The translations under genes and the position numbers were made by a program. From Chrysomallon squamiferum (Eukaryota > Animalia > Mollusca): a stretch of 64,000 nucleotides of DNA. Positions within the stretch are counted from its first letter, which is position 1. Every line of letters starts with the position of its first letter. The notes under the pieces were generated by a model. It was not told the origin of the DNA, ran no database searches, and was given only the letters and a program-made list of their open reading frames with translations. Below are positions 1-61,816 of the stretch, piece after piece. The stretch is from assembly GCA_012295275.1 (NCBI GenBank), contig CM022670.1, forward strand, positions 41,168,001 through 41,232,000, in the 5' to 3' direction.

Positions 1-636
1 TGACATTTTGTAAGTCATTTTATCTATAAAATGCAATTCCTCAGACCTGTGTTATTATTTTAAAACCGTTAATTTTCACAAGAATTATTGAACATTGTTA
101 CTTCTATTTAATTTTTTTAATTCAAAGTCATGTGTTCCTGTTCAGTTAATGAATTAATGATATTTTGTCTAAGATATTTCTGAGACACGAGAGAAATAAA
201 AACATTTACTATGATGTTTTTATAATGAAATTGTTCTTCTTACTGCTAAAACTGCTTTTACTGATACTATTATCAGCACATATTTTTTTATCTTATAATA
301 TATTGTGGATTATTTGTTAGTATATTTGACAAATAACTCAGTACTCAGGACATACTGTAGAGCATTATTAAATGTAAAGTCATAATGTAAATATAATTAC
401 ATTTAAGATTAAAATGTGTTTTTATAATAACATTTCTTTACTTGTAAGTTATTCATTATGGTGTAATTAAAGAAAAGATTTTTGTTAAGTAAATTTCAAA
501 TCAGACCAGAAGCAAAAAGTATTACCAGTAATTAACTGAAATAAAAAATAATTAATACTAAATAAATAAATAATAAAAGTAATAATGTTTACTGCAGTAA
601 TATAAATACGTGTCACCTTTTTTTTTTTATCTACAG

Positions 637-669
637 CCACTAGATCATATAGACACTACTGAGTGTTAA
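637..669 (+). CDS. Terminal coding exon of an upstream tandem paralogue of the TRP channel (gene starts before the window)
   Basis: ctacag|CCA CTA GAT CAT ATA GAC ACT ACT GAG TGT TAA = PLDHIDTTEC*. It is nearly identical to the last exon of the full TRP gene at 23228-23260 (PLDHQDTTEC*) and lies inside a multi-kb paralogous segment. Confidence 0.75.
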   Translation, partial: PLDHIDTTEC

Positions 670-2572
670 AAACTGATTTTTAAAGGTGAAAATTTCCACA
701 AGTTCTACCAGTGATCAACAAACGTATCTAAAGGGACATTTGAATGTGTTTTGTTATTTACTGCATTACAATATCTGCTAATTAATTTTTATACCTTTCT
801 GTAAGAAATAAAATTATATTTACAATCTTTTAAGAAGATTTTTTTTTTTTTGTATCATAACATGATATATTATATTTATATAATGTTTTTCAGTAAGGCA
901 CTGTGTTTTTAATATGTAATTATATGCTCTGTTTAATATTTGTAATCTGTGTATACAAGGAATTGATTAGGGTTCAAGAATGCATATGATGGGCAAATCT
1001 AATATTTCTCCAAGCTGACCTGTCCAAACATATAAATAATTTTGTGGTATTAATGAAAAATTCAGTTACAAAAGGGCTTAGAATCCATTTTTACTTATGG
1101 ACTGACTGATAATAATTAACCATTACTTCGACCTAATTAGTTGTAAAATCAATGACATTCAACAGTAAAGGACCAATGAATTGTTAAGATATGTGCAAAG
1201 GCACTTACATCCTTTTGAGTTTTGCTTTTTGTTTTTGTTTTAAAATTGATAAATGGTATGTAAATTCTTTTGCATCTAAGCTCTTCAAATCTTTTTGTAA
1301 TAATGGTTCACACTAAATGTATTCATCTGCTTCTTTCATCTCCTTGTTATTCTGTAGTACACTGTGCTGAATACAGTTTTGAAGGTATATTTATACTTAA
1401 TTTTAATGAATGAATATATGAACCTTTTACACCTTTCTTATTGATCAATGTTTATGTCCAACTATAAAGAAATGAAGAGGTGTGTCTGAAAGATTTCATA
1501 GTGTTTTATAACTTTTTTAATCAATATTTTTTTTGGCATTTTATATTTTATATGTTCAAAATACACAATATATTTAGATGTTCTGTGAAACTAAGGTAGA
1601 CATGGTGAGTTCAATTTTATTGCTGAATTCTGTTTGTCTTGCCCTAACAGAGAATAAGACAAACGAGTAGAAATATGGAATATCTCTTCTCTTTTTATAA
1701 ATTAATAAATATTTGGTCTGAATACCTCTTAAGACATTTAAGTATGGATAAGGTGTTTGACATGTTTTATTATTATTATTATTATTATGACTGTCTGAGA
1801 GAAATTCTGCTGATACTATTCTTGAACTAAGTCTGGTAGCAAGTTTTCATTTGTGCCAAGATCCAAAATAATCCCAAAGACATCAAGAATATTTATCCTG
1901 TAAGAAACTGTTGTCTTATCACTGACTTTATTTAGGGATATGTTCAATTTTAGAATTTCGTTTTGTTAATTTGCATTACATATTTTGTTTATTAATTTAT
2001 TTGTATTTTTACCAAATTTTTTTTTAAATATGTTTTGATACCAATTTTTACAGTAAAATAAAATATGTCGTGTGTATTGATCTATTTTATAATTATATGA
2101 ACGATAAGACTTTGTAATGTAACGTGATGCATAACCTGAGCATGTGACTGTTAATACATTTATTTTTTATTTTTTAAATTAAATTAATCCATTGGTTGTG
2201 TTGAAATTTTTATTTATATGTCAATTTTCAATGAAAGAAATAATTGGTTTCCAGTTTGTTTTATTAATTATGACATTGCTTGAGTGTTTTCTTCTCTTTT
2301 TTTAATGATTTACTTAGTTTCCTTTAAAAACTTGGATTATTTTATTTTATATTTAAATATTTCTGTTTAATGTGTCAATTACTTACATCCCTAACTTAGA
2401 GAATGAAAAGTTTGAGAAATATTTTTGATACTGGTTTAAATCTGTGTCTGACATGTATACAAGAGCTAATAGCATGATTAAAAATGATTGAAAATCATGT
2501 TTTTTGTTATTGATATTCAGTTCTTATTTACTTTGTATGACCACTAAAACACAACAAAATACAATATATATA

Positions 2573-3221
2573 CATTGGTACCTTGACTTACGAGTTTAAT
2601 TCGTTTAACTCAATTTCTCGTATATCGGTTCAATTATTCCAACTGAAATCTGTTAATCCGTTCCAGCCAATTTGTTTTGTTGCTTTTTTTTTTTTTTTTT
2701 TTTTTTTTAACGTGTTTTTAAATAAGAAAAATGTGTTTATAAATAACAAAAATTGTATAAAAACAAAGTAAAAAAAAATTAAATTAAAGAAATAAATTGG
2801 TTTTGTAAAGCGTATTTATCTTGGAGATCAATCAGATTATTTTAATGCCTTTGTCTGAGTTATACTTTATCGAGCGTCAGTTTGGTACATATCGTAGAAG
2901 TAGTACGCTCGTACTGCTTAGCTAAGTCAACTACACGCACACCTCGCTCATGTTTTTCTATGATTTCATGTTTTAATTCAATGGACATCATTCGCTTCCG
3001 CTTCTCAGCACTCGCTTTCTTATTTCTGGTCAGAAAATAGAAATTTGGAAAAATACTGCACAAAACGGGAGCACAACACAACAGAGATACTGCAACGGCA
3101 AGGTAACCATGTGATGTAAAGGAGTGAAACGCGATATGCTGAAGCTTGCTCGCAACTCAAAGCAAAAATCGACCAGGCGACTCCTCGTAAGTTGGTGTAA
3201 TCATTAGTCGAGCTACCAATG
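2573..3221 (-). mobile_element. Internally deleted Tigger/pogo (Tc1/mariner superfamily) DNA transposon
   Basis: Terminal inverted repeats cattggtaccttgact (2573) and agtcgagctaccaatg (ending 3221), with TA at the left end. The minus-strand ORF 2860-3081 encodes KRKRMMSIELKHEIIEKHERGVRVVDLAKQYERTTSTICT, a pipsqueak/CENP-B-type N-terminal HTH as in Tigger transposases. The element is absent at the paralogous site (~26095-26135). Confidence 0.85.
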
Positions 3222-3379
3222 TGTGTGTGACAAAAATATGAACTGAATGGAATGTGTTGAAATAACTATAAAGTGATTTACAAGTGAAAGTGATTGTCAA
3301 AATGATAATGAAGTCATTTTACCTCTTTCTCAGATAAAGAAAAAACAAAACAATAAAAACAACATCAGTAATAATAATG

Positions 3380-3414
<35 letters not shown>

Positions 3415-4554
3415 TATATTTAAAAAATTAAAATTGTTATTTTAAAATTAAACTCAGTTTGTCATTACTAACTTTTGATTTTCATCACAAAAATCAGCAA
3501 CAAATATTTTTTACAGTCTGCCTGGATTTTCTTTTCATACAAGCTGGTAAAATTTATGACTTACTGAAACAACCTGCAATTCCATACAAGCTTATCAATA
3601 TTTTTGTTATTCTGAAACAAATATCTTTGAGGGTGAACAAAAACAACAAAAAAAACAAAACGAAAACAAACCATAATTGGATAATTTATGCAATTGTTTC
3701 TAAAAGAAACAAAACAAATGTGTGACATTAAATTCACACAAAATCTCATTCTTCATCCGATATCAATCAAATATCCTTGTGGTTTCGGTTTTGATGGAGA
3801 TAAACAACAATCTCGCGTGGTGCAGAAATAACGATGTTTTTTTATGTTATTATTGACTGAGACTGAATGTAATATATATATATTAAAATATAAACATTAA
3901 ATTCAATATACATTGCGAGTTTTCGTTTGTTTCTAGTTAGTATGTGTAATACTTTAACATACTTACCTTTTTAATTCGGTATGGGTTTAGAAGCAGAACG
4001 TGTGAGTTCCATAAAACCAAACTGATGTGGTCGTGGTCTAATTGTTTAATCGTGTTCTATCAGCAGACGGCAGTGTTTTGTGCAGTTTGTGAGTGTAATT
4101 CATTGTTTATCCATGGCTAAAAATTGCCGTATGAAAAACAGCACTTTTTATTATATGGTTATGTTAATTGTTTAATCTTACCGCAAGCATGCGAATAGGA
4201 AGCATTGCTTTATTTGGTAGATGAAAAAAAAAACAAAAAAACAAACAAACAAAAAAAACAACCAACATTCCGAAAATAAAATCTTGTCCATGATTATGTT
4301 ATTTAACGATAGTTTTTTTGTGTGTGTGTGTGTTTTCTCTCTTCCCTCTAATATTCTAACAGCGACAACTTCATAAATAAAGGAATTAACTGTAATAAAA
4401 TTATTTGTGTACTGAAATCATTTCAATGAAGAAAAACTATCTAGTTGTTTCTGTTCATCACTTTCTTCAAGGAAATAAAAATAATACTAATTGCGGTTAA
4501 TGAAGGCTTTATATTGTGCTATATTTTAAACTGCATTTGTTTATTTGTAAGCAG

Positions 4555-5018: not shown

Positions 5019-5307
5019 ATGGATGAAATAGACTATAAAAAGAAGAAAAAGAAAAAATCTAAAATATCACCAACCGAGGAAGTTAGTAACACAAGAGGAA
5101 AAGAAAATCAAGGATTTTCTATGGATAATCTCAACCATGTTGGGTGAGAAATATATATTAACTAAAATATGAAATAAGCAATGTGACTATAATGTCTGTT
5201 GTATTAGAAAGAAAGACAATTGTTTTGACTTGGTTTTTGAGCTACTAGCAATACAATTAGAAAGTTCCAACAAATTCTTTTAAATTACCTTTATTTTTTA
5301 TTTTTTT

Positions 5308-5367
<60 letters not shown>

Positions 5368-7870
5368 TATTTATTTATTATGACAAATATATGAAAGAAA
5401 TTTCTTTTATTAAATGACAGATATTTTAATACAGTTTACAACATATACTGGAAAAAGATTGTTTTCTTTCACCATCAATTTTTAAATTATTTTAAAGCAA
5501 ATAAACAAAATTCTTTCTGCAAACAACAAAGATCAAAATTTAAGAACTAATCTGGATCACCAAAATTATTCTACCAGTTTGATTTCATTTTTCTTTCATT
5601 CACATTATTTTTCAGTAATTTTAAAGATGTAGTAATGGAGGTGGGACACACTACAAATTTTCTTGAAGCAGTTATTAATGCCAGACACCAAGCCTCAAAA
5701 TGGAAAGGTTACGTGACAAGAAGAAGAATGCGAAAACGAACAGGTACAGTTATCAGGATATTTATTTATTTATTTATTTATTTATTTATTGGACTAAATT
5801 TTTATTTTTTTATTGTTTTTAATTTAAGTGTGTGTGTGAGTGTGTGTTGTTTTTATTTTACTGTTGTTTTTTGGAATGAGATTTGTCATTCTAGACTTGT
5901 ATGTGATTAACTAATTTAGACAGAAATAATTATTCACATCAAAAGAAAAATCCTGAAATGCCTACTCAGTGTGTATAAATATAAAAGCAGTAGACCAATA
6001 TGTTTAGTCAATCAGTTTGCCTTCATTCAACTTAATTATTTATGTTCACACACACACATAATGTAATCCTAATGCATTTAGAAAGTCACTTGTATATATT
6101 AAAATGATTAGAGCTAAAATCTTGAATATTAAATATAAGTTGACTAACATCATGCAGATGACACAAACTTCTGCTTTGTTAATAGCTGTATAAGTTGAAA
6201 ATTAACATTGTTGATCATCCCATTTTTCATTCTGTTAATAGCTGTATAAGCTGAAAATTAACATTGTTGATCATCCCACTTTTCATTCCTGTTACTGAGA
6301 TTTATTTTATATTATAAAAAAAATCAAATGTTGCAGTATTTTGTAGTTCAGACATGATTTTAAAATGCTTTATTTTTGGCAATAAATATCATTGGCTTCA
6401 TATTTTTAATTATTTATTTTATTTTATTTTATTTTATTTTATTTTATTTTGTAAATTATTAAAAAATATAGTTTACTTCCTGATCAGGTATTTTTATTTA
6501 AGTTTTGTTTATGTTTTATGTTTTAAGGTTTCGTTAAACGTAAGTTCAGTAACTTCTGTGTTGGTAGCATGTTTAAATTCTGCAATACTATGATTAACCT
6601 CTGATGTTCATTTTTCATATTATAGAATATCTGAGGTAATGTCAGGGGTTTAGATAAATACTGTTAGCATTACTATGCTTTTTACATATTTGTTTCCAAA
6701 TGCATTCCTTCACTCTTTTTACTTAAACTTCACTGTGAATTACTGTTGTTTACCAACAATGTCATGCATTAAACTAATTAACATCTAAAATCTGAATTTT
6801 TATCACTTTTAAAAATCTGCTAGCCACTGGTGTTGTAGTAAATAAAGACAAGGCCATACCTTAAAATAGAGAAAAAAAATACAACAAAAAACTTCAATAA
6901 TAATAATAAATAAATAAATAAATAAATAATCATAATATAAGAAAAACGTTTATGAAATTAATTTCATATAGTTCTTGTATGTAACTATTTAAAGGTTACA
7001 TTATTTAATGATGATGATGGTGATGATGATATGATTGTGTTGTTTTAAAGCATGGCCTGATAACATAGAACTATTTCTTTGAATTGTCTTTTAATACTTA
7101 AAATAAACTAACATTTTTTTCACTAAAACTTATTTTTACTAAACTGACAGCTGATGAGTGTCCATCAGGTATGTATTGTAGTTACATAGAGTAACAAACA
7201 CAATGCATGTTATTTGATGTTGGTAGATTTTATTTAAAACTAATCACATCGTGCTTCAGCAACAAACGAGCTTTTCAGTGTGTTAGTATTTTTTTATCCA
7301 TTCATTCACTGACTCACATTTTAGTCCAGATAAATTAGAACAAAAGTAAAAGTATGATTTACAGTTTTATGGATCCCTCAATCTCTGGAGAGTTTTTCAT
7401 TTCTATTTTTATCTGAGATCTGAAGATTATCTAAATTCACTTTGTTATTGATAACCAGTGAGTCCAAAATGTTGTCTACTCTCACTGTGTTTCATGTCTG
7501 CCTGTAAACTAAAGTAATGCTGATGAACACACACCTGTAAAATATAAAATCTGGTTAGCTTTCTTATATATCACTTCAATTACATTATTTGCAACAAACC
7601 ATCAATTTGTCTAATAAATTCTGAATAAAAAGAATACAAAAAAAATGTTTATTCAAAAAGTTAAATATTCAAATTTTCAAATAAACTTTTCAACTTAACG
7701 AGTTTGGATTTTTTTTTAAAAAATGATAAAATGAAAATTCAAGTTTTAATGAATGCAGCTGTACAGCTGAGAGCAAACAAAAATTTGAGTTTATTGCCTT
7801 TTGTATATATTTGATCATATATCTGTCACAATTTCTATTGCTTTGCAAATTTCAATTTTTATTTTATTTT

Positions 7871-7906
<36 letters not shown>

Positions 7907-10900
7907 TTTCATAATTTACAATTTTTCATGTTAAGATTTTATATGTGGATTAATAATATTAATAATATAACAACAACAACAGTAACATTAACCATTTCAA
8001 TTTGATATTCAATTTTTTTTATTATAGTTTTTGTACTCTTTCATTTCTTTATCCATTCATTCACTGACTCACATTTTTGTCCAGAACAAAAGTAAAAGTA
8101 TGATTTACAGTCTTATGGATCCCTCAATCTCTGGAGAGTTTTTCATTTCTATTTTTATCTGAGATCTGAAGATTATCTAAATTCACTTAAAAACAACTTT
8201 TTTTATTCATCTGTCTTTAATTTTCAGTGAATATTTTCACTTCATTCTATAACCAAATTGGTTTTAACAGACACTATCTCATTGTCAAAATAATATATAA
8301 ATGTATTATTCCTAAATTCCTAAATAAAATATTATTTATTTTTCACTAATACTATGTGGGAAGTTTTATTAAACAAGCCACTGAAAATTAGTTCGTTAAA
8401 TGTGTTTCCTTTTCTAAAACTGTGAAGTGGCAAAATTGTTCTAACATTTATTAAATATTTAAGATAGACAAACTTTCATGTATTGATCTCTGAATTATGT
8501 ATAGAATAATTAATTATAATTTGTTATCTGCATTGTGTATTATTATATTTGCTTTTTTCCATTATACAATAAATATTTAAATATTTTATATACTTCATAT
8601 ACAAACATAGGAAGCAAAGTATATGTGATAACCATGCCTAATTATCACTCTTGTATTTACAAAACTGGTTTGTTTACTTTTGTTTCCACAAATAACAGCT
8701 GTACTAGAACATGAATATGAACATCACACAGACCGAGAGACAACAGGTCAGTTAGGACTGGACGACATCCACCAAGACTTTGTGAGTACCCAGGCAGAGA
8801 TCAAAGCTGCATCATCAAAGGGTCTTAGAGATCAGAAAATGTGTGTTGCGAGCAATCAAGCATTAATACAATACTTTGCCAAACTTGGCCAATCTATTGA
8901 GGAAAATGAGACAATAAATCTGGATTTTGTTGAAACTCTGCTGCATGGTGGAGCAAACATAAACTGTACTGACAAACATGGACAGACAATTTTACATGAA
9001 GTAAGTGTAGCAGAAATTTCTTAGTCTTATTATTTTAGTCTTGAGCACATTGTCCAAGTGGTTTTTTAGTACCAGAGACTTTCAATTCAGTTTTCATGGG
9101 TCACTAGATCTATAAATCTTGATTATCTATATTTTCTGTCCTTTCATAAACTAATGATCTGTAAATGGCCTCCCTTAGAATTAAAACTTGTTTATTTACT
9201 ATTGTCCAGTTAATATTTTTAGAACTGTATTTGACTTTAATTATATTTAGGTTGCTCGAACATGGCATGTAGATGTTGCCAGATTTTTGATTGAACATGA
9301 AGCCAATGTCAATGCTGCTGACTTCTATGGCAGAACTCCACTCCATGTTGCAGCAGCAGTAGACTATGCAGACATGGTCAACCTACTCATTGACAACAAA
9401 GGTGTGTTATTGTTTTTCTTATTTACTAAGTATCTTCTGTCTCAAGGGGATTGATTGGTCCCAGTTTAAATCATCCAGATTAAAGATTATATAAACAGTC
9501 ACAGTGCCATTGTATATTGCTTCATCAAATATATAAATTTTCCAGTCATTAAAATGTGTAAACCGTGAATGTTTATTTTCTTATTGTCAGATATATAGGT
9601 AGGATATGTATATATAAATTAATTAAAACATTTAAAAATTGAGATTAATGAAGTAAAATCTGATTTCATTCAAGAATACAGAGTATCAATTATTCCTTTT
9701 AAACCACCAAAACTATGCAAGCTATTTTTGGACAACAGAAGTGTGTTTGAGATGTGCTGATTTTAAGTAATATGTTTTATATATAGTAGTAAATTATATG
9801 TGTTTATAAACAATTAGCTTTGTTGTCTGTTTCAGCTGACAAGGAAGCTCTGACAATGAAGGGAGAAGATCAGACTCCTGTCTATTATGCAGCTAAATCT
9901 GATTCCTGCAAGTCTTTGAAAGCTCTCATTAAAAGAGGATGTGAGTTCAAAAGAATCCGAGATGGCAAAGGTAGAACACCCATTCATGCTGCTGCTCAGC
10001 TAGGTAAATTTAAGATTTAGAAATTCTAATATTTGTTGTTGATATTTGTCTGTATGAATTGATATGTTTGTAATTAATCATTTTACAAATTGCTTTTTGT
10101 AGATGTTTTTTCTTTTTAGTACAAGGTAATCAGTTTCTTTTAAACAATTTATTTACTTTTTTGAAAATATAAATAAAAAAAAGGAATTTTTACTTCTTTT
10201 TAAAATAAATATTTCAACTTTATTGATTGCTATTATTATTATTATTATTAATCGGTTTTTAATTATCATTAAATAATAATATTTGTTTTATATTTTTATT
10301 TTTATGTATTTGTACTAATACAAACACACACACAAACACACACACACATACACACACAAATATATAAGTTTATAAAAAGATAAACATTTTCAGATCGCAG
10401 TGAGACAGCCAGGTTACTCCTAGATCTACAGGCTCCTGTAGGAGTCAGTGACAACTCTGGTAGAAAAGCCATCACCTGGATGATCACAAAAATGCCACCT
10501 GTGGTATGTACTATTAAACCTTCACAAAATTAATAGCATTTCCTAACGAACAGAAATGATAGATGTTTTACATTTGACATATTTGTATTGACATAGTTAA
10601 CATTTTCACAGAGATAGAGTTTATATATAAAATTTTCTGTGTTTTTCAGGCCAGTGAAGCTCTCAATCAGTTCCGAACAACGAATCGGCCAAACAGAGAA
10701 CAGTGTTTTTATCTCAATCTTCTAGTTCAAGATATAGGTGAGATGTAATAACAAATTTCTCTCTTAAGATTTTGTAATATTTCAGTTGGTAATTATGTTT
10801 GACTGTTATTAAATATTAGTTGTGGAAACTGACATACTCATGTACCTTCTCACAAATTTTAACCTCTAGTAAAGTGTATTAAATCTCACTGTCCAAATTT

Positions 10901-13900
10901 TTACAAAAAAGTGTCTTAACATATAATTTATTCTTATCAGAATATTATTTTGTTTGAAAATTGTATATTACTGTAAAGAAATTAGTAAACATATCTGTAT
11001 TTCAGTGTTAGAGTATTTGGCTGTAAATCAAGAGGTTTCCAGTTTGATCTCATGTGTCCCCATAAACTTTTATTTATTTATATTTCATTTTTTTAATTTA
11101 AATTATTATTTTATGAATTTTACAGTTTATATTTATTCTATTCCAACTTTACTGATCAAAATTGAATTATTTCATTTAAGCCATATTTGATTTTGTATCA
11201 CACACGCACACACACACATTTAATTGTTTTGTATAGTTTTCAATGTTTTCAAATGTGATTATGTTTTAATGTTTATAGAAAAAGATCCAGATGGCAGAAG
11301 TCAGACACCTGTAAGTATTTCTCTTCTGAATTCTAAAAATATGTGAAATTGTAATTAATAAATTTAGAATAATTTTTATTATAAGATTATGTTAAAAGTC
11401 TAAGAATGTTTTACAAATAAATGTAATTACTGTCATGTTTCTGATTGATTATATGTATATATCAAATTGTATTTTAAATCTACTTTAGGTTATGTTTATT
11501 AATTAATTAAATTGATTATACAATCAATAATATAAAATGTATAGCATAAGTAAAAACTTATTTATCAACAGAGGTATATTTTCCTGGGCTTTTCAGTTTT
11601 GTTCATTTACCGTATATACTTGTGTACAAGGCGACCTTATGTATAAGTCGATGTGTATTTTAAGACCAAAAATTGCGTCATTTTAGGTATTACTTGTGTA
11701 TAAGTCAACTGTAGATTCCAGGCACCGTCACTATTTTTAGACCAGTGTGACAGTGCCATGAAGGCCTACATTGTACGCCTACTGTAACATAATAACGTAA
11801 ATGCATGTATTACACGAGCGATAGCCTAAATGTATCATAAATAGTATCTCTTTAATGTAATAGGTCTAACATGGAGACCTAACTTACCGTTATATTTAGC
11901 CGTTCTGTGATTTACAAAATGTGTCGGTAGTGGATATTAATGACGATTGCAATATTATTTCACCAAATTCTTTACAATTAAACAAGTGAGTTTTGTTTAT
12001 GAAATTAGGACCGATATTTAGTGCAATTTGGCAGAGAAGTCTGCATTCCTAGATCATTGCAAGACACCGTAAGGCATAACGCCGTACCGACGGTTTTCTC
12101 GCTTTAAAATGTATTTTTATGTCATTAAACGGAAGAATATCATGTTTTACATTCATATTTGGTTTTGTTATTTAATTTTTCAAAATGTTTTATACAATAA
12201 AATTATATTTTTGAAAAGCTGAAAGACCGCGATTATTTTAGATGCATCCCGTAGCAAAAAATAGTCAAAATGGCGACTCTTCAGCAACAGCTACAAAAGC
12301 ATTAACTATGTATAAGTCGACCCCCAAAATATTACCTTAATATAGTCTCCCAAAAATTCGACTTATACACAAGTATATACGGTAAATTATTTTCAAGATA
12401 TATATATTTTTATTCTCTCCTTATTTTGGACAGTTTTTGAAAATGCGTGCATAATTATATGAGAGAAAAAAATTGTTACCTGAATATAGATAAAGTTAAA
12501 AGTACCTACAAGAAAGGTAATAATAATAATAACATAAATAAATAAATAGATAAATTAAATAAAAATCGCTGTTTACATTTGTACCAGCTTCATATAATTA
12601 ATTAACTAAGTTAAAATACTGATTTACTATGAAAGTTTAAAACATATATCTAGTCAGATAAGAACTAAATAATTCATGAGAAAAATTTAAAAGCTATTTC
12701 CTTTTATGCCAGCTCCATACTATTGTGCAGCAGAAACAATTCCAGCTTCTTATGAATGAAACTATTCAGCGCTTGATTGAAATAATGTGGAAAAAATTTG
12801 GCCTGTAGGTTTTAATGTGAATGCAGTTCTATATTTGCGGTGGTGGTTGTATTCTTCTCAGTGTTACTGTCTGCTCAGATGGCTAAAGTGTGTTAGTCTG
12901 TATTAAAACACAATAGCATGTAGCTTCAAATTACAGGTTTTGTAGCATATATTTAACATACATAGGGGCTAAATAAAACAATTTGTTAAAACTAAATTTT
13001 TAAATTTTAAATATCTGTAACTAATCTTTCTTTCAGTAAGGTAATATTTCTCAATTTTTAACCTAACATAATCATATTAGTTAATACTAATGGTTTTCCT
13101 TCTACATTTTTTATAGTGATTTTGAATCAGTAAAATTAGTTATATATATTAAAATAATATTTTTATATTGCTTTTATTGTAGTACATATAAAATTTTCTT
13201 AGAACAGAAGCTATCATTTGTTAGACTTTGTTTAGAGTTTTTGTTTTATTGATATTTGTTCATTGTTAACATGTTCAAATAAGCATCTTAGTTGTTTTCA
13301 TAATAATTAATTTCATTCAGTGTGTATAAATATGAGATAAAAATCAAATTATAAACAGCTATTAATACAAAAATTTCACAAACTATATAATAAGTGCATA
13401 GGTGATTTCTGAAGAGGGCAGTTGGTTTGATATAATGCATACACATCAACCATTTATATCAGTGCCAAATTCAATTCTGTTTATTAGTATTTTTTTTTGT
13501 TTAATTTATATATAATATGTCTATTTTTATTGTTGGATATTGAATTTTTGTCATGTGATTGTCCAGTGTGTTGTTCAAAATAAACCAAAAATATTAAAAT
13601 GTTCATAAAATGTTTATTTAGCAGTAATCTTAAAATAAATAACAAATGTAGATATATGTAATACCTATTTGTTCACTCCTTCACATTTAAACCAACATTA
13701 TATTAATTTGTAATGATATATTTAATATTTACTAAAATAATAAAATTTGAAAATGTTCTGGAAAATGATCTGCCCTGACAATTAGCATTGCCTCCCTTAA
13801 TTCAGCTGCAGATGGCAGTAACATACCGACAATATGATCTCGTTATGCACCCGGTATTTATTAATCTGCTCAATGTACAGTGGATAGCATTTGGCAGGTC

Positions 13901-16900
13901 AGTTGTGAAATGGTTGTTTATTTATAATGTTTATTTAATTATTTTTATTTGTTTATTTTCCATTTAAAACATTTTATTTCCTAACACCAATACTTTTCTT
14001 TGCACATGTTAAAATTTTGTATTGCACTAAAATATATATTTTTGTTTAGTTTTGTATTTATTTATTTATTTTTGTTTTGATTTTATTTGTTTTAAGTTTC
14101 ATAATTCAGTGATTTAAAAACCTAATAATTTTAATTTAGAAGAAAAACAAATATAAGAAGTAGAATGAAATCTAATTTTGACAAGCAAATTATAATATCT
14201 TTATTAATGAGAAATAAAGAGTAGCATTTTATAATCATTACTTTCTTTTTTATTAATTAATCTAATTATTTACATTATGTTAATAAAAACTGTGCTTGTT
14301 CAATTTTAAATAAAAAAATTTTTTTTTAATTTTCTTTGAATTATGTCACTTTGATTCAGTAAATGAGACAGCATTTAAAATTATTTCTTAATGCTTAAAA
14401 AGTGCTAATTGTTTCATGATAACATAAGAATGACTAATTGTTTTATGATTCTATAAATATGAGACTGTTTAGATAATTTTGTATTTTGTATCCTGTTTGT
14501 ATTTGCACTCTTTAAGCTTTAATTTAACTCAGCTTGAATCAGATATAATGCATATAATTGTTTTCAAATTTAATTAACAAGAATGAAAGTTATAATTAAG
14601 AATATACAGAAAATATATCAGTATTTGATACTTATATTCATATGAAATGTGAATAAAGTTAATTTTATTGTTAAGTTTTAAATGTTGAACTTACAGATTT
14701 TTAAAATTTTTTAAATTTTCAATACTTATTAATAAGATATTGTTTTTTTAATGTATAACTCTTTTTCATTTTGTATTGTTTAAATGCAATAATTATTCAT
14801 AAATATTTTATTAACAGCTTAAAGGGGTGTGTGTGTGTATAATAATGCATACCAATAGAGAAAATGTAAATTTTATGCAATAAACAAGAAATTAATTTTA
14901 TGTTAGATAAAGTTAAATGAATTAAAACAAATTCAGTAATAATGTTATATTATTTCAACATTATATTATAAGATAAGAATATTTTTTAAACAATTTTATT
15001 ATGTTAATATTTTAGGTTGTATATATTAGTATAAATGTTTTATGTTAGTAATTTACATCTTTTATTACTATGTTGTTATGTTAGTCTAAGATATGTTTAT
15101 TACAGTGTTGTTATGCTGATTTGTAATGATATAAATGTTTTATGGTGGTGTGTTATTAGATATCTTTTTGTTACAGACGAGGTGCATGGATTAACTTGAT
15201 CCTAAACTTGTTGTATATTCTCATGTGGACTTTTATTGGTGTTCTTGTGGAATATGATGACAGGCACCAATACACTTTACCAAATGACATCTGGAGAATT
15301 GTGTTATGGGTTAGTATCTCATTAAATCAATGGCATTTCATGGGTCCCAAAATTTTCAAATGAAGATGTATCTGGCCAAAAAAGACCTTAAAATGACCAT
15401 TGTTGAACATTTATAATTTGTTTATTTCAAAACATAACTTCATCGTTTCAAAGTTGTCCAGTTCCCGTGCTAAACCTGGGTGTCACTATTGGTCTCTCAC
15501 CCAGATGTCATCTCAGGTTAAGCAAGGAAGCAGACTAGAGTTCAAAGTTGACTGACCTTAAAATCTCAACTGTCTCTTTACTCCTGTAAATATGAAGTTA
15601 TAAATAATTGATCTCAGAAATTATCAGTGTTGAAGGTGTAATGTTCATTTAGAATAAACTGAACTGTTTTCAAAATTGAATTTAAAATAATAATAAAAAA
15701 TATTTATTGATAAAAGTTTGTATTTTACACACACCCAACATACAATCAGCTTCCAATATTATCACCAGGAAAAAAATGACATAGTGAAAAACTGGCTAGT
15801 AAATGGATGCATGTTTGCAGTAAACTAGAATAACAGTTTTTTAAGCTCTCTTATGCTATGTGCGATTCAGTTGCAGTTTCATTCAGTATTTCTTTAGCAG
15901 GCATTCATAGCAGTTATCTTATCATTTAAAGTATTTAGAAATTGATGTTACTTTTACTGCATCTTGAATCAAATATCTAAATTTTCTTTTATTATTCTGA
16001 TGTTTTAAAATATTGTTTTAATTATTATAATTATTCAGTTTTTATATTTGAGGTTATTTGATAGCTTCATTATTCATTGTTTGGTTGTATATTTGTTTCA
16101 GTTGGTAGCTGTTGCATTTACTGTATGGCAGATAGTGGAAGAGCTGTTGGAATACACTCGGTCAAAAAGAGCACATCGGGTTTGTAATCTAAGTACTCTG
16201 ATTCATAGCCATAGATTATACTTTGATATAACCATTGTATTACATTTTTAATTTCAACAAACTACAACAACTCCACCATTAATGTTGAGGTTATGTTCTT
16301 GAAAGTACTTCTTTAACTGAAATGTTAAGTTAAACTGATTTTACACAGTTATATAAATGGAGGATTATGTGTCTTTGAAACATATCTGGCATATATCCTC
16401 ACATGGTTAAGAGAAAAAAAAAAAAAAAAAGTTTGTTCTCTATTGTAAACAGAAATAATGTATATTCACATACAAATAAGATAAATAAACAAAAATAAAA
16501 TTAAAATTTGTTTGATGGCTGATGCAATAATGGATGTAGTTGTGGTGGTTGGGAGGGTGGGAAGCTACTGATAGATAGAAGAGATTTCGGTCCTTCTCAT
16601 GATCACTGAAATGGACTCGAAATGGATGTTTGAAAAGAGCAAAAAAAACACCAAACAAATATGGTGCTTAAAACGTCTGTTACAGAATGGAGCATTATGA
16701 TAGTCAGGCTTGGAGTGCCTATATACCAAATATTTTATGTCATCATATATTTACATCTTTTATCTTTCTTAATTGTTGTTTGTTTATTTATCAGTTTGTT
16801 CCAACCTCATTTTTTGATTACCTCATCAGACCATCCATCCATCCACGAGTCTGCTCATGTTTTATTTTTGTTTTCAGAATGCAATGAAGTGGCGAACTCA

Positions 16901-19900
16901 GGAAATAAATGAAGATTTAAAATTCTGTCACCCTCAATGGCCAGAAGAAAGACATTTCCTAGAATCAGAGTTGAAAGAACTAACTAAGCTAAGCCCTAAC
17001 TACTTCAGTGACTACTGGTAAAACAAAACAAAAATTTTATTTCATATTTCAGTTATAATTGGTGTATTAGAAACACTGTAACTTTTGTTTCTGTTTGAAG
17101 ATGAGTGGAAATCACAATTTATCTGTGCAAAATTTCTGACATTAAGATTTAGGCACATACAACAGAGTTGTTTGATTAAAAACATGTATTTTCTAAGAAT
17201 ATGTTTTGATGTTCTTTACTTCTTGTTTAATGTTTTATTTTGTTTCTTCTTGTTTACTCATTTTTGAATTTTTATTTTAAAACAATAATGGTTTTGTGTT
17301 TTTTAGGAATATTTTTGACTGGGTGTGTTACCTTTTGTTGTTGACATCACTCATCACTCACCTGGTTGACATTGGTTACCACACAAACCAGCTTGCACGT
17401 GCACACATCCGTGTGATGAGTGTTACAATAATTCTGCTCTGGCTGAGGCTAATGAAAAATGCTAGAGCATTTTCAGTTTTTGGTATTTAAAATAATAATA
17501 TTTTTGTTTGTCATTATGCAGTTTTAATATATAAGACATTTATGGTGCATGAACTTTATATGTAGTTCATAACCTGTTGATATTTGAAAGCAAATAATTA
17601 TTATGAAACAAATCAAAATAGAATCTGAAATAAATTAGTCAATAGTTTTTTAAAAATAAAAGAAAAGAAAGAAAGAAATTGTGAAATTTTTTGTCAGACT
17701 TTTTATTATGAATGTGTTTTTTTTTGTGGTGATGTTGTGTTTACTTGATATACTTTCTAACAGGACCTTTCATTGTGATGCTGGGACACATGATGGGAGA
17801 CATGGTGAGGTTTGCATTTCTCTACTGTGAGTTCTACATTCCATACGGTGAGTAACTTATTCTTTACATAATTACTACATGTGTTTATTTCTGCATTCAG
17901 AAAGGTCAAAAATGTGAAAAATTCAGTCATGGTTGATGTTGTATTTTCTTTCATGACAGTGAAAATTTTCTATAAATACCTCATTTATTCAAATGCATTT
18001 TGTTTTGTTTTATGTATGTATGTGTATATATATATAAAAGAAATTTCCCTGAGTTGAAGGAAATTCATGGATTATTTTCCAGTTTGTGCCTTTTGGATGT
18101 TGTTTGGTGGGGAGAAGAAACCAGACTCAGGGGAAGGTCCATTGATCAGTGTGACCTGGTTTAATGACATTGGTCAGGTCATGTTTAGTCTGTTCAGGCT
18201 GACCCTAGTTGATGAATATGATTATGGGGTAAGTTAAAACATTTGTTATTATGTATTTATAATATTAGAAAAGATGAAGTACATCCATTCGTACAGATAT
18301 TTTCCATATTACTGTTCATATTTTCACTCTCTCAGTCTTTTTAACTGTTATTAATTTGAGAATTTATTTATATGTATCCATAAAAAAGACTTGTATAAAA
18401 ATTAGTTATAAAACTTAAACAAATAGTTTAGTATTTTTTGCTTTTAATTTTTTTACACCATTTCAGCATATACATATCAAAAATTAATTTTCAGGCAATG
18501 AAACAAGTTGATTCTGTCATGACCGATATTCTTATTGGAACCTGGTTGGCACTGTCAGCCATATTGTGCCTTAATCTCTTCATAGCACTGTTGTCAGACA
18601 CCTTTCAGCGGTATGTTTTTGTTTGTCCTTTATCTGGTAACAGCTGAATATGTTTGAGTGTGCTGTTTAATACCATATACTGGTGTGTTATTTTGGTGTG
18701 TGTAAAAGATTAATTATTTTGTTAAATTTATAGTTACAGATGCAACAGTTAAATTTAATGTTAGTTAAAAGATTAATTATTTTGTTTTAAAATTTTTATC
18801 ATTTTATTTTTAACAGTTCAAATTTATAAACATAATTTGTTAAGTAACTAAACTTTTTGTTTGATGTTTTCTGGGTCAGAATAAATATTTTATTGAATGA
18901 TTATATTTTGAATTATTAAAAAGGAAGCCCCAAGTTCAATAGTTACTCTTTTTCTCAACAAAATATGTTTTATATATAAGTATATACAAGAATTAGAATG
19001 TTGACTGGATCTAATATCCAAACATAGCACTGATTGATTATGCAGTCTAGTGATACTCAATCGATTGATGTATGTAGAGCTACAGCTCAGATAAAAGTAG
19101 TTTCCCTTATCTTATACTAATATTTGATATTTTCCTGCACAGAGTTTATGATAATGCTCGGTCAAATGCTGTCATGCAGAAAGCTATCACAATTTTAAAC
19201 ATCTGGGAAGGAATGTCAAAGAAACGGCGCCACAAATTTCTTCTCTATGTGCACAATGAATGCAACCCCAAACGAGATCCATACGATGATGATGTGACAA
19301 CTAGTGGAGAGGAGGATCTTAAAAAAGTCACCATCCAAATCAAGGTACAGGTTTTGAAATATTTGTTATAAATAATAATAATAATAATAATAATAACAAG
19401 AACAACAATAATAAGAATAATAATAATAACAACAACAATAAAAATAATAGTAATAATAATAATAACAACCAGAACAACAACTATAAAAATAATATTAATG
19501 ATAATTTATGATAATGACGATGATATTACTGTTAAAGACTTAGTTAATGGTCATGTTTATACTATTATAGCTAATAATATTTGTTATTACAATGATGATA
19601 TCCTAATAATAATAATACTCATCCTTTTAAAGGAAGGACTTGATGAGCTGTTAGAAGGCTGGAAAGCAAGGTTTGGACATGACGAATTATCTGACATGCT
19701 GGTAAATATAAAAATATTTTTAAAAAAGAAAATATCTGCTGATTCCTATGAGCTTTTAATATTTTAAATATGTTACATGTCTTTAAAATAACCTTCACTT
19801 CATTAATTCATTTTTATTCAAATGTGTCCAAAAACCCATTTTATTTTAGGAATTCTCTGGTGGTTCTGGTGGTGGTGGAGGAGGTGGTGGTGGTGGTGGT

Positions 19901-22900
19901 GGAGGAGGTGGGAGTGGAGGAGGAGGTGGTATGGGTCAGGATATAAAACGTAATCGTGGGGTGGTGGTCACGGTAGACCGGTTTGAGAAGGAGATCAGTG
20001 TTTTACACACTGGAATAAAAGACTTGCAGGACAGACAGGAAAACATCATGAACAGTCTGAAACGTGACACAAAAACTATCAAACATCTACTTCAGCAACT
20101 GCTCGGTCGATCCACATTAGAATTAGGTTTGTACTGTTTAATAATAATGTGAGGTTGACTGATGTTATTGTTTATGTTATAAATACATAACAAAGATTTA
20201 CTTATTTTACATTATAAATAGGTAACAGACACCAACATATTTTACACTGTTAATAGATGACAGGGATTGACTGATTTTACATTATAAATACATAACCGGA
20301 TTATTTTGCATTAGATAACATATTGGCTTACTTTACATTATAAGTAGATAATAGACTGACTTATTTTGCATAAATAGATAACATATTGACTTATTGTATA
20401 TTATAAATAGATAACTAAGATTGACTTATTTTACATTGTTAATAATAACAGAGACTGACTTCTTTTACATTACAAATAGATAAAAATGACTGACTAATTT
20501 TACATAATAAATAGATAACAGAAACTGACCTACTTTACATTTACATTGATTTATTTTTTTACATTATAAATAACAAAAGAGGTTGACTTATTTTATAACA
20601 TTTTATTTTAAATGAATAGATAACCAGACATTGATTTATTTTACATTATAAATAGATAAAAGAGATTGACATATTTTACATTATTAATATATAACTGATT
20701 GACTTATTTTACATTATGAATAGATAACCAGAGATTGACTTATTTTACATTATAAATAGATAACAGAGACTGACTTATTTTGCATTATAAATAGATAACA
20801 TAGGCTGACTTACTTTTCATTATAAACAGATAACAAACTGACTTATTATACATTATAAATAGATAACTGAGATTGACTTATTTTGCATTATAAATAGATA
20901 ACTGAGATTGACTTATTTTACATTATAAATAGATAACTGAGATGGGCTGATATTTTATATTATAAACAAATAACAAAGGTTAACTGATATTGTTCATATC
21001 ATAAATATTGTTAATGTTTACACATTATAAAGAGTTAGTTATATTAATATTGTTTATAAATTATTATTATTGATGTGTTTGTATATGTATTATGTTGAGT
21101 ATATACACACATGAGAACAAAATATATGCACACACAAATACATGTAAATATTCAAACATGTTAGATTTTATTGAAATGTTCAAAAAATCATGGAATGTTG
21201 TTTCTTATTAATGGAGTATTGTAATTTATATATTTTATCTTTGATTTTATAAACTTCAAATCAGGAATGTTGATGAGAGTTAACTACATTACTCTTTGTT
21301 TTAGGTGATACAGGTCAGGAAGACACAGAAACAAATGTAGAACATGAACATCACACAAGATCTGGACATGAGTATGTTTTCTTAATAATTCTTCTTTACA
21401 CAATATACAGTTCTTATTACTTGTAAATACTTCTATTTTAAAGTTTAATCGTCTGATATGTGTATTTATCACTTTTTAATACAACCATTTATCAGTTACA
21501 ATACATCTATCAGTCTGTCAACAAATATCTTTTCTACATTATGAACAACATAACAAACTTAAAATGCAGTAACGAAGTATATAAAAAATCACTCTTTAAC
21601 ACCTTTCTGTGTTGGTTTAAATATCATTTAAATTAGGAATATTTTGTTTTATTCTTTAAATTCTTAAACCATCTCTGGACTTCTTCTCTCAACTTTGTCA
21701 AATTCATTTTTATTTCTCTTTCTTCTTCTTTTCTTGTTAACTTACAACTTATTCTGATGTTTCTATAAGTTTCTAAAATAAAGAAAACACTGAAAATTGA
21801 TATATTGTTGTCCCTCACTTGGATATTTTGTATCACACTGTTTACAAAAGATATTAGTTTAGTAATTTTATTTATTATTACTGAGCAGATCTGAAGGTCG
21901 AGTTAGACGAGTGAGACGTAAAAAGCAAACAAAAACACAAACTCATGAAGAATACAGAGATTCACAGGAACCAGCAACATGTAAGAATGCAGTCAGCTAC
22001 TGCAACCTGCTTTTAATTTGTAGACAATATTAGTTACTTTTAATTTTGATAACTACATGTAAGAATAGAGCATCCTTTTTTAATTTGTAGACAGTATTAG
22101 TTATTGTCATTCATATTTTGATAAGAACCATCAAGAATTCAATAATATTAGTAATCTGTTTTCTGTTTATGCTTTGTAAACAGTATTTTCTATTGTTTAT
22201 TTTTTGTATACAGTTCTTATCCATTACAATTGAATTTTCAGGACTGGTGCTCCCCCTATTAGTCCATGAAATGAAGGGTCAGCAGTATATAAATATATTT
22301 TCTTTCATTTAGTTGTATTTGATTTGTTGGGGTTTTTTTTTTTTTTTTTTGCAGACTTCTCACATATTGATATATCTACCATAGAGCTTCCTTCCCAGAC
22401 CACACCTCAGGTATTATTTTTATATATTACATTATCTTTAGATAGACACAAGTTGCTTTTCACATTTTTACTTAAATATGTAACAAATTAAGTTGAATTG
22501 CAATTTCATTTTTTTATTTTTATATATATATTTGGAATATATTTAAACACAGAATTTTTAATATTTTTATTTAAGTGTTATATATCCAGACAAAATTTCT
22601 CAAATTAAGTATTTCTACTGAAAACACTTTAACAGACAGTAAGTATAGTTAAATATGACATTTTGATAAGTCACTGTGTTATTATTATTAACTATATTTT
22701 AAAAAGTTAATTTTCACAAGAATTACTGAACATTGTTATTTTCTTTTAATTTTTTAAATTCAAAGTCACTTTTTACCTGCTCAGTTAATGAATTAATGAT
22801 TTTTTGTCTAAGATATTTCTGAGACACATGACAAAAAAAAACACATTTACAGTGATGTTTTTGTAATCAAATTGTTCTTGTTACTGCTAAAACTGCTTTT

Positions 22901-23260
22901 ACTAATACTATTATCAGCACATTTATTTGTATCATTTAATATATTATAGATTATTTGTTAGTGTATTTGAAATATTTTATTTTATCATATATTGCAGATG
23001 TAAAGTCATAATGTATATATAATTATATTTAAGATTAAAATATAATGGGTTTTTACAAGTAAGTTATTCATTTTAGTGTAATTAAAGAAAAGTACATTTC
23101 AAATTAGACCAGAGTAAAAAGTATTACCAGTAATTAACTGATATAAAAAAATATATATAAATATATAATAAAAGTAATAATGTTTACTGCAGTAATATAA
23201 ATATGTGTCACTTTTTTTTATCTACAGCCACTAGATCATCAAGACACAACTGAGTGTTAA
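5019..23260 (+). CDS. Ankyrin-repeat transient receptor potential (TRP) cation channel, TRPV/TRPA-related, ~954 aa
   Basis: Phase-consistent GT-AG exons: 5019-5143, 5616-5743, (7151-7168 optional), 8699-9000, 9251-9401, 9836-10003, 10394-10503, 10650-10737, 11279-11310, [12713-12804 OR 13806-13897], 15177-15309, 16102-16179, 16878-17017, 17307-17482, 17764-17847, 18083-18228, 18495-18610, 19143-19344, 19633-19701, 19850-20126, 21305-21371, 21889-21980, 22355-22410, 23228-23260. Total 2865 nt without the microexon. Ankyrin motifs: GQTILHEVAR, GRTPLHVAAA, DQTPVYYAAK, GRTPIHAAAQ. S3 YWNIFDW; S4-S5 WLRLMKNARAFSVFGPFIVML; pore FSLFRLTLVDEYDY; S6 LCLNLFIALLSDTFQRV; C-terminal coiled-coil-like segment. 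The last few C-terminal exons are less certain. Confidence 0.92.
7290..8190 (+). repeat. Intronic rearrangement: ~145-bp direct repeat (7290-7440 / 8045-8190) flanking a decayed copy of the TRP promoter (7441-7760 ~ 4561-4915)
   Basis: 'ttatggatccctcaatctctggagagtttttcatttctatttttatctgagatctgaagattatctaaattcact' occurs twice. 'gtctgcctgtaaactaaagtaatgctgatgaacac' occurs at ~4616 and ~7496. Confidence 0.88.
11610..12382. mobile_element. Non-autonomous Tc1/mariner-superfamily element (MITE) with TA target-site duplication
   Basis: TA|CCGTATATACTTGTGTA ... TACACAAGTATATACGG|TA: a perfect 17-bp terminal inverted repeat with internal repeats of 'gtataagtcga'. No ORF, and CpG-rich relative to the host intron. 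Confidence 0.88.
12713..12804 (+). CDS. TRP mutually exclusive exon A (linker/pre-S1 helix)
   Basis: gccag|92 nt|gtaggt, phase 0 to 2. Encodes LHTIVQQKQFQLLMNETIQRLIEIMWKKFG(L). Confidence 0.85.
13806..13897 (+). CDS. TRP mutually exclusive exon B (linker/pre-S1 helix)
   Basis: ttcag|92 nt|gtcagt, phase 0 to 2. Encodes LQMAVTYRQYDLVMHPVFINLLNVQWIAFG(R). Confidence 0.88.
20180..20990. repeat. Minisatellite, ~33-37-bp unit (gattgacttattttacattataaatagataac...), in a TRP intron
   Basis: About 20 degenerate tandem copies beginning shortly after the 20126 donor. Confidence 0.88.
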
Positions 23261-24589
23261 AAACTGATTTTTAAAGGTGAAAATTACCATGAGTTATACC
23301 TGTGATCAACAAACATATCTAAAAGGATACAATACTACATTTGAATGTGACTTATTATTTATTGCATTACAATATGTGCTAATTAATTTTTATACCTTTC
23401 TGTAAAAAAAAAAAAAAAAATGATATTTATAGTTTTCTTTTAAGAACAGTTTTTTAATATATATTATATATAAAAAATTTCAGTAAAGCACTGTGTTTTT
23501 AATATGTAATTACATGCTCTGTTTAATGTTTATGCTGTTAATGGAAAAATAATTTATCTAATTTGAAGATGTTTATAATGATGAAGTTGGTATGAAATAA
23601 AATAAAGAATTACTGGCCAATTCAAGCACAATATTTCTCCAAGTTGACCTGACTAAGGATGTAATAATTCTGTGATATGAATGAAAAATTCAGTTACAAA
23701 AGGGCTTAGAATCCATTTTTTACTTATGGACTGATCGATAATGATTAATCATTTCTTCAATCTAATTAGTTATAAAATCAATGACATCCAACAGTAAAGA
23801 ATCAGTGATTTGTTAATGATAGCGCAAAAGTTCTTTCCATCTTTTTAAGTTCTGCTGTTTGTTTTTGTTTTAAATGGTATGTAAGTTCTTTTGCAGATAA
23901 GCTCTTCAAATAAATCTTGCTGTTAAAATGGTTCACACACTGTAAATGTATTCATCTACTTTTTTCATTTCCTTGTTAATCTGTGATAGACTGTGCCAAA
24001 TAGTTTTATGTACTTAATTTTATTGAATAAATGTATGATTAATGTTTATGTAAAACTGAAATGAAGAGCTATGTCTGAAAGATTTTATAACTTTTTTAAT
24101 CAATATTTTGTGCATATTATAATTTATGTGTACAAAATACACAATACAGTTACACGTTCTGTGAAACAAAGGTTGAATTTAGACATGGTGTGTTCAGTTT
24201 TATTGCTGAATTCTGTTTGTCTTGCATTAAGAGAGAATAAGAATTAAATCAGCTGAAATATGGAGATATCTCTTCAGCTTTTAGTTGTAAGTTGGAAATA
24301 ACTGAATAAATGTTTGGTCTGAATACTTCTTAAAAACATTTAAATATGGATACGGTGTTTGACATGTTTTTTTATTATGATGAGTGTCTGAGAGAGAAAT
24401 TCTGCTGATACTATTCTTGTAATAAGTCTTGTAACAAGTTTTCATTTGTGCCAAGATCCAAAGAAATCCCAAAGACAACAAGAATATTTATTCTAATCTG
24501 TCGTTTCCTATAAGTAACTGTTGTTTTATCAGTGCCTTTATTTAGTGATGTTCAATTCTAAAATTTCATTTTGTTAATTTTCATTATAT

Positions 24590-25362
24590 ATTTTCTTGTT
24601 TTAATATTATTTTCCTACAAATTGTTTTAGTATAATAAAATAGATATTTACATAAATTTAATTTATAATTATATGAACTGTATGATTTTTTAATGCAATG
24701 TGACTGTTAATATATTTATTTTATATGCACATATCTTTTTTGTTTTTAAACAGTATTTATTAATCCAGGTATTTATAAATTAGGACATTCCTAAATCTCT
24801 TTTTAATGATTTACTTAAATATTTTAAAAACTGGGATTATTTTACTTTATATTTACATACATTTTTAAGCATTTTATAAAAATTTCATTCTTCACTTTAG
24901 CTCACTGGGTTTAAGTTTTATAACTTTCTTTAACAAAATGAATAGTATAATAATAGTAAGAAAAATGATAATAATCGTGGTAATTTTGAAATGAATATGT
25001 GAAGCAGTACAGACTATAAGAGAACAAGCTGAGACTTTCTGAACTTTTTTATTTAAAAAAAATTAATTTTCTATTGGTTATGAAATCCTTTATAGTGTTT
25101 TCTTGTTTTAATATTATTTTCCTGCAAATTGTTTTAGTATAATAAAATACATATTTACATACATTTTATTTATAATTATACGAACTGTACGATTTTTTAA
25201 TGTAATGTGACTGTTAATATATTTATTTTATATGCACATATCATTTTTGTTCTTAAACTGTATTTATTAATCCAGGTTAACCATCATTTTGTAGAAATTT
25301 TATACAGATATATATGTGTGTGTGTTTGTTTGTGTGCGTACATTTATACAAAATAATAGATA

Positions 25363-25422
<60 letters not shown>

Positions 25423-25840
25423 AATAGAATATGTTTTATATTTGGGGGTTTTACTAGATTTTATTTATTTACATGTTAATTTTCATTCAGTGAAAGAAAT
25501 AATTGGCTTTTAGTTTGTTTTATAAATTAGGGCATTCCTTGAATGTTTTCTTCTCTTTTTAATGATTTACTTAAATATTTTAAAAACTTGGATTATTTTA
25601 CTTTATACTTACATACATTTTTAAGCATTTTATAAAAATTTCATTCTTCATTTTAGCTCACAGGGTTTAAGTTTTATCTTTCTTTAACAAAATGAATAGT
25701 ATGTTAATAGTAAGAAAAATGATAATAATCATGGTAGATATTTTGAAATGAATATAATGTGAAGCAATATAGACTAACAAAGCTGAAACTTTCAGAACTT
25801 TTTTATTTAAAAAAATAAATGTTCTATTGGTTATGAATCC
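24590..25840. repeat. Local tandem duplication in the TRP 3' flank (~24590-25090 / ~25095-25840)
   Basis: 'aaattgttttagtataataaaata' and 'tttttaagcattttataaaaatttcattcttca' each occur twice in colinear order. The first copy lacks the middle (TA)n segment. Confidence 0.85.
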
Positions 25841-34039: not shown

Positions 34040-34072
<33 letters not shown>

Positions 34073-43147: not shown

Positions 43148-43431
43148 TTATTCGTAGTATATACCGTACACACAGCCTATGGCGTACAGGGATCTGTTAC
43201 GAAATTCAAACGATGCGAAGGTGTCGCTGCCAGCATCCCACAAACATCGGCTACTGACTCGCATTCCCTGGGACGCAAGCTGACCAATGTGTACCACACA
43301 GATTATCTTGTATCTGGGAATGCTCAGTTCTTTAACCCGAGCCTTGATAACCTGAAAGTTTCAAAAAATATATAATAATAATAATAATAATAACAACAAT
43401 AACAACAATAACAACAACAACAATAATAGTA

Positions 43432-43469
<38 letters not shown>

Positions 43470-43501
43470 GTAGTAGTAGTAGTAACAATAATAATAATAA
43501 C

Positions 43502-43533
<32 letters not shown>

Positions 43534-48297: not shown

Positions 48298-48336
<39 letters not shown>

Positions 48337-49227: not shown

Positions 49228-49283
<56 letters not shown>

Positions 49284-53659: not shown

Positions 53660-53696
<37 letters not shown>

Positions 53697-55282: not shown

Positions 55283-55334
<52 letters not shown>

Positions 55335-55740: not shown

Positions 55741-55788
<48 letters not shown>

Positions 55789-58896: not shown

Positions 58897-58929
<33 letters not shown>

Positions 58930-60715: not shown

Positions 60716-60767
<52 letters not shown>

Positions 60768-61777: not shown

Positions 61778-61816
<39 letters not shown>

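Follow-up and report, generated by a model that had tools for sequence, protein, structure and literature searches.

Genes of the window and the family of the channel

The window, the whole stretch of 64,000 nucleotides of Chrysomallon squamiferum DNA that was analysed, carries a putative TRPVL channel gene within which two alternative exons, here termed A and B, lie about 1 kb apart (Table 1). The PX-domain gene that follows on the same strand is presumably a sorting nexin of the SNX7/30 type. The scattered exons beyond it are taken to resemble RIC1, and the short minus-strand frame ahead of the channel gene presumably resembles the DNA-binding start of a Tigger/pogo transposase. The flank behind the channel gene (22695-26741) resembles positions 56-4512, at 77% identity over about 2 kb and at 71-93% in other blocks, which fits a tandem duplication with the upstream copy of the gene ending just before the window. 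The upstream paralogue mentioned in a preliminary description of this DNA is thereby borne out indirectly.

Table 1. Features of the window, with coordinates, strand and the basis of each assignment
Feature	Position	Strand	Basis and remarks
Reading frame	2860-3156	-	no Pfam match
Putative TRPVL channel gene (ankyrin repeats, six TM, TRP-like helix)	5019..21979, 3' end beyond	+	tblastn with Gigantopelta isoforms, RNA joints, Pfam on orthologue, sequence
Constitutive upstream exon, 32 nt, ends in phase 0	11279..11310	+	RNA joints 10737>11279 and 11310>12713; splice sites
Alternative exon A, 92 nt; last linker helices and pre-S1 helix	12713..12804	+	sequence, RNA joints (form seen spliced in RNA), 28/30 residues as in Gigantopelta isoform X2
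Exon B acceptor region, predicted (CTGAC branch-point-like motif, pyrimidine tract, acceptor)	13775..13805	+	sequence scan
Alternative exon B, 92 nt; same helices as A	13806..13897	+	isoform in relatives' annotation; 21/30 residues as in Gigantopelta isoform X1; profile 64.6 bits; no spliced RNA in four runs
Constitutive downstream exon (S1), starts in phase 2	15177..15309	+	sequence and RNA joints
Further likely exon of the TRPVL gene	near 22357-22412	+	
PX-domain gene	28390-34600	+	PX by Pfam
Tctex-1 family gene, two exons	43148-44650	-	Pfam
Scattered exons	47445-63800	+	two exons scanned, no Pfam match

The gene had been described as an atypical TRP channel with likenesses to TRPA and TRPV. 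A TRP channel it is, but its fingerprint residues file it with TRPVL rather than with either of those families. All nine TRPVL fingerprint positions that could be anchored by offset (W, N, G, W, N, F, I, A and A in Table 1 of PMC9242649; two others have no reliable anchor) match in the Gigantopelta aegis protein P0045, where they are W400, N415, G581, W674, N684, F686, I687, A688 and A705, and the exons of the window carry the same residues. The likeness to TRPVL extends to four to five ankyrin repeats and six transmembrane segments. TRPA1 would show about 16 ankyrin repeats and Y, F, L, G and R where this channel has N, W, F, A and A, and the TRPV fingerprint calls for a Tyr in S1, a Leu after the S6 Asn and a Trp in the TRP helix, in place of which Asn, Phe and Ala are found. 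Structure comparison does not separate the two: Foldseek with the full model matched TRPA1 and TRPV alike (E 2e-14 to 1e-12, high rmsd), and exon B by itself had no match among solved structures. The best sequence matches of the membrane part among solved structures are TRPV5 and TRPV6 (E about 1e-12), with the swapped exon aligned to their linker helix and pre-S1, but identity in structural alignments is about 20% and the fingerprint is another one.

One downstream exon used as query returned 44 proteins, the best from Gigantopelta aegis (89% over 66 residues) and the next from Haliotis. Among the best 120 of 193 homologues are proteins of molluscs, annelids, nemerteans, brachiopods, echinoderms, amphioxus, tunicates, fish, amphibians and cnidarians, and a 28-row tree computed without the swapped segment roughly tracks species relationships. 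This orthogroup tree, which has no TRPV or TRPA outgroup, contains homologues from Capitella, Dimorphilus and Dendronephthya; these were matched by species to the reference TRPVLs, which, in the available part of the PMC9242649 supplement, include the same three genera. The family reaches fish and amphibians, one example being zebrafish si:ch73-193i2.2 (P0175), a gene name not found in the literature searched; the TRPVL references of PMC9242649, as far as that source is available, are cnidarian and annelid.

The exon pair and the choice between its members

As the preliminary description had it, A and B are neighbouring homologous exons of equal length that run from phase 0 to phase 2, both of them open; each is bounded by its own AG and GT. 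The description had also called them highly diverged: their peptides share 9 of 30 residues and their DNA 43 of 92 bases. Its further point, that joint inclusion and double skipping each lead to a stop, is confirmed by the computed joins, which reach stop codons within a few codons, and no A>B joint is among the RNA joints listed. Codon 31 of the segment is split and is completed by the first base of the exon at 15177, so that it reads Leu after A and Arg after B.

Resemblance of this kind does not arise by chance within the window. A profile of 104 family segments, from which the paired species were left out, served to score the 346 AG-92 nt-GT segments of both strands (52 of them open); A reached 66.4 bits and B 64.6, and the next best stood at -30.4. 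When all 127,816 frames of 30 residues in the whole window were compared with the profile, the next best after A and B was -10.1. Because the two exons score so far above all other AG-92-GT segments, the pair is not a chance find; with equal length and phase, and splice sites of their own, the mutually exclusive pair first proposed from the sequence holds up, and that it is real and conserved in this lineage is very probable.

The RNA evidence consists of contigs from four runs of one study, a kind of evidence from which minor forms drop out; 15 of 18 joints, spanning 9000 to 19142, are listed. Among these, 11310>12713 occurs in three of the four runs (X1, X3 and X4) and 12804>15177 in X1, X2 and X4, with X3 added by narrower mapping. 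A single X3 contig passes from the upstream exon through A to the downstream exon and skips B. Two of the four junctions that had been put forward for checking are therefore present, whereas the other two, 11310>13806 and 13897>15177, were not found in these contigs. No joint into or out of B is listed in either mapping, of which the narrower one took in X2, X3, X4 and X5, and the RNA cover of B is one unspliced X3 contig. The A form alone is seen in RNA contigs, and the B form alone as annotated isoforms of relatives.

Several other transcripts touch this region. In X2 and X3, a TRPVL transcript about 95% alike has a variant upstream exon joined directly to 15177, skipping both A and B, and would be frameshifted; skip products exist, then, for a close paralogue or divergent allele. 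Run X5 holds several copies of the 11279-15330 region, one of which is without 49 nucleotides (13805-13853) at the start of exon B, and the deleted and skipping copies could belong to a decaying paralogue. Contigs of X2 and X4 run from A into the next intron (12713-13007), in X4 attached to upstream spliced exons, as intron retention at the donor of A might produce. Within the A-B intron, positions 13021-13046 combine a branch-point-like CTAAT, a pyrimidine tract, a CAG and, 4 nucleotides on, a donor-like GT; this may be a poison microexon of 4 nucleotides or a recursive site, and no RNA joint was seen there in the contigs examined.

Identity between the window and Gigantopelta is 93% for A, 70% for B and 73-97% for the other 14 exons, B being the lowest of the 16. 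This low value, the A-only joints and the X5 copy that has lost part of B could all be read as signs that exon B is decaying in this species and that the A form alone is now made. Such decay seems improbable. The B exon of the window is open, has both splice sites and a branch-point-like motif, scores as well as A against the profile, and retains the consensus HP, which is no longer present in B of Gigantopelta; identity is likewise low, at 73-75%, in the two exons that follow. Moreover, the RNA stems from one study, and the deleted copy may be a paralogue, because depth points to several copies.

How only one exon comes to be used has no special device to explain it in these introns, where neither a close branch point nor docking/selector pairing was found. 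The A-B intron is 1001 nucleotides long and contains many AGs, and the branch-point-like motif of B lies at a normal spacing of about 30 nucleotides before its acceptor, some 970 nucleotides past the donor of A; an intron of this length and so ordinary a branch-point position make steric exclusion unlikely, and this candidate was rejected. As for pairing, the best intron-intron duplexes differ by about 1 kcal/mol or less from the best obtained in a small control of four shuffles per pair, and the only well-formed inverted repeat among the introns consists of transposon ends. Since 92 nucleotides are not a multiple of three, splicing factors are likely to set exclusivity by choosing one exon, with nonsense-mediated decay removing the transcripts that escape. 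Regulated choice followed by nonsense-mediated decay is the simplest model where the reading frame depends on the use of one exon. The transposon-like sequence in the intron before A is a MITE-like element (11605-12387) with terminal inverted repeats of 37 nucleotides, 86% complementary; its RNA contig depth of about 90-600 marks it as a common repeat.

Occurrence in other species and age

Thirty protein clusters were examined, four large ones through 15 of 16, 15 of 87, 15 of 16 and 15 of 164 members. Among the members listed, two forms of the segment occur in 3 of the 30 clusters, and a single form in 27, including bivalves, caenogastropods, heterobranchs, limpets, amphioxus and tunicates; the latter count is of annotated proteins, for which unannotated exons are possible. 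The Gigantopelta aegis isoforms P0001 and P0045, equal in length, differ at 21 positions, all at residues 376-405. In Haliotis, two pairs of equal length (P0046/P0052 and P0050/P0051) show 17 differences each, confined to the swapped segment; Haliotis rufescens has seven isoforms, five of the B form and two of the A form, and in a second Haliotis species each form occurs once. The same limits recur in the annelid Owenia fusiformis, in which P0133 and P0229, both of 986 residues, differ at 19 positions, all within 350-380, a swap of 31 residues. With pairs in Gigantopelta, in two Haliotis species and in Owenia, the switch is not confined to this lineage.

The isoform pairs are database models, and they might be taken for annotation artefacts and the second exon for a chance look-alike. 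The chance control, the orthologous A and B forms in Gigantopelta and two Haliotis species and the exact limits in Owenia speak against this, and the objection, now highly implausible, is largely refuted. Further species were sought by two routes: a search for short fragments carrying the A form found none, and a three-sequence A profile run against 1.84 billion representatives gave 22 matches, none of them a named new species with two forms. One exon-sized fragment, P0339, combines gastropod A residues at positions 15-18 with a non-molluscan Lys at 25.

The second exon would stem from a tandem duplication older than the divergence of the Neomphalina and Haliotis lineages, which took place in the Palaeozoic. 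An AU test on 31 columns and six sequences rejected independent duplications in the two (p 0.045), which lends marginal support to a single one before their split. With Owenia added, a shared duplication was best by 3.2 log units and independent origin had p 0.32; a common origin of the gastropod and Owenia pairs is thus favoured but unproven. A 47-row tree of the 31-residue segment leaves 27 of 44 inner branches open and neither shows nor rejects a single A clade that includes Owenia, nor does it reject the two Owenia forms as sisters (p 0.197). In this tree one Owenia form clusters with sequences from two nemerteans and three annelids that have a single form each (98/87). The other Owenia form stands apart, a hint of an old origin for this pair; gastropod A lies outside the nemertean and annelid group.

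A bolder reading is that the pair predates the split between molluscs and annelids, persists whole in Neomphalina, abalones and Owenia, and is reduced to one exon or under-annotated elsewhere; it would toggle TRPVL between two sensitivity states, with gastropod A as a natural equivalent of the K750A mutant of Drosophila TRPA1 (see below). This remains doubtful. If true, it would make the pair a Cambrian-age splice switch on a gate-coupling helix, convergent with the switch of the fly.

The swapped segment and its possible role in gating

The segment encoded by either exon aligns to TRPV6 residues 282-345, a stretch made up of linker helix and pre-S1. The TRP fingerprint begins with Trp 26 of the segment. 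AlphaFold models of both Gigantopelta isoforms have identical helices (374-380, 384-387 and 390-428) at a pLDDT of about 95. Alignment and models together uphold the initial assignment of the exon to the linker and pre-S1 region.

A residue pattern shared by all four taxa (the window, Gigantopelta, Haliotis and Owenia) separates the forms. Position 4 of A is bulky, with Thr, Ser or Cys at 17, Val or Ile at 18 and Arg at 20, and B has Ala at 4, Val at 17, Phe at 18 and Lys or Asn at 20. Positions 4 and 18 are the strongest covarying pair among 112 distinct family segments, a signal confounded by shared ancestry, and genes with a single form show both states (bulky with Val/Ile in 48 of the 112, Ala with Phe in 31). 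This covariation suggests two alternative packings; it is also a caution that convergence can produce states like those of A and B.

Charge and the HP motif follow a looser pattern. Position 31 is basic (Arg or Lys) in 95 of the 112 segments. It is Arg in all four B forms; among A forms it is Leu, Leu and Ala in the gastropods and Lys in Owenia, and single-form genes of limpets have Ala. To judge by the limpet Ala and the Owenia Lys, the channel can do without this charge, and its absence does not mark A in every lineage. At the HP motif, His is found in 93 of 112 segments and Pro in 76, which makes HP the family consensus. The preliminary description held that B keeps HP and A is without it; A is indeed without the Pro in all four taxa, but B keeps HP in only two of them, the window and Owenia. 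Its contrast between a basic WxxFG motif in A and one without basic residues in B is for the most part not kept beyond this species, for B has a Lys there in Gigantopelta and Haliotis, and the counts of Lys plus Arg in A and B are 4 and 2 in the window, 4 and 4 in Gigantopelta, 2 and 4 in Haliotis and 4 and 6 in Owenia.

Work on related channels bears on this segment. According to the available part of PMC7452202, W321 in the pre-S1 of TRPV6 bonds to the TRP helix and R302 belongs to the PIP2 site of TRPV5, both within the region aligned to the exon. In Drosophila TRPA1, the K750A change leaves about 33% of the heat current and lowers the NMM current only slightly, as given in the accessible portion of PMC10073219. 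Position 31 corresponds to K750 by spacing from the pre-S1 glycine alone, and the partner helix of K750 is one described, in the text at hand, for TRPA1.

The explanation that best covers these observations, at a probability of roughly 0.6, is a conserved either-or pair, born of tandem duplication, that repacks the linker/pre-S1 region and so tunes the coupling to the gate. With the swap, the packing of the linker helix on pre-S1 likely changes, A pairing a bulky residue at 4 with Val/Ile at 18 and a small one at 17, and B pairing Ala at 4 with Phe at 18 and Val at 17. In gastropod A, the basic residue directly after the pre-S1 glycine would in addition be removed, a charge loss whose expected effect is on the activation threshold or on regulation by lipids, not on ion selectivity. 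Two differently tuned channels are the likely outcome. A somewhat unlikely alternative grants that the pair is real and maintained but lets both proteins gate alike, with the switch acting on assembly, trafficking, partner binding or, through frameshift-coupled decay, on mRNA level. The like predicted folds of A and B agree with it, as do the workable 4/18 states of single-form genes and the skipping transcript that two RNA runs contain from a divergent allele or close paralogue. A decay switch, however, needs no second coding exon kept at 93% identity, and gating of TRPV6 and of Drosophila TRPA1 responds, in the parts available of those reports, to single-residue changes in this segment.

The proposed tuning of gate coupling by alternative exons has a known counterpart in the linker exons of Drosophila TrpA1 (A/D versus B/C), a group 1 TRP channel in which splicing also swaps 30-40 residues lying between ankyrin repeats and membrane domain; the available text of PMC10073219 and PMC8944580 describes isoforms that differ in heat response and in sensitisation by Gq-PLC. 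The fly channel is of the TRPA family, and its alternative segment is an unresolved "nexus" loop, with the separately resolved pre-S1 outside it (PMC10073219, in the part available), whereas the TRPVL swap involves structured helices and pre-S1 and two duplicates of equal length. The TRPVL switch is analogous to, not homologous with, that of the fly, and its independence, claimed from the outset, stands. Exons 8/8a of CaV1.2 likewise are tandem homologous exons for alternative versions of one helix, but, as far as the source available goes, they swap a transmembrane segment in another branch of the channel superfamily. No comparable pair in TRPVs was found in the literature searched, nor any functional study of TRPVL. 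No paper on TRPVL splice forms or the A/B pair turned up in a search that most subscription papers lay outside, or in the accessible parts of 10.1101/2021.11.14.466824, 10.1101/2025.05.09.653172, 10.64898/2026.06.15.732245 and 10.1101/2024.05.23.594666. The abalone TRP survey PMC12980990, in the portion available, lists one TRPVL and no isoforms, and the words "isoform" and "exon" are absent from its main text.

The isoform sequences as such are already present in automatic annotations; what is new is the recognition of a conserved either-or pair, of the family to which it belongs, of its recurrence in an annelid and of the residue pattern that separates the forms. TRPVL channels are widespread, in cnidarians, spiralians, amphioxus, fish and amphibians, and a pair of isoforms alike in everything but the linker and pre-S1 helices offers a built-in control for finding what gates them. 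The pair would also add a second case, independent of that in the fly, in which splicing targets the region that couples the ankyrin repeats to the gate. Another site of variation appears in the nemertean Lineus, whose equal-length TRPVL isoforms P0140 and P0231 differ by four residues, from 606 to 629 near S5, possibly through a further duplicated alternative exon.
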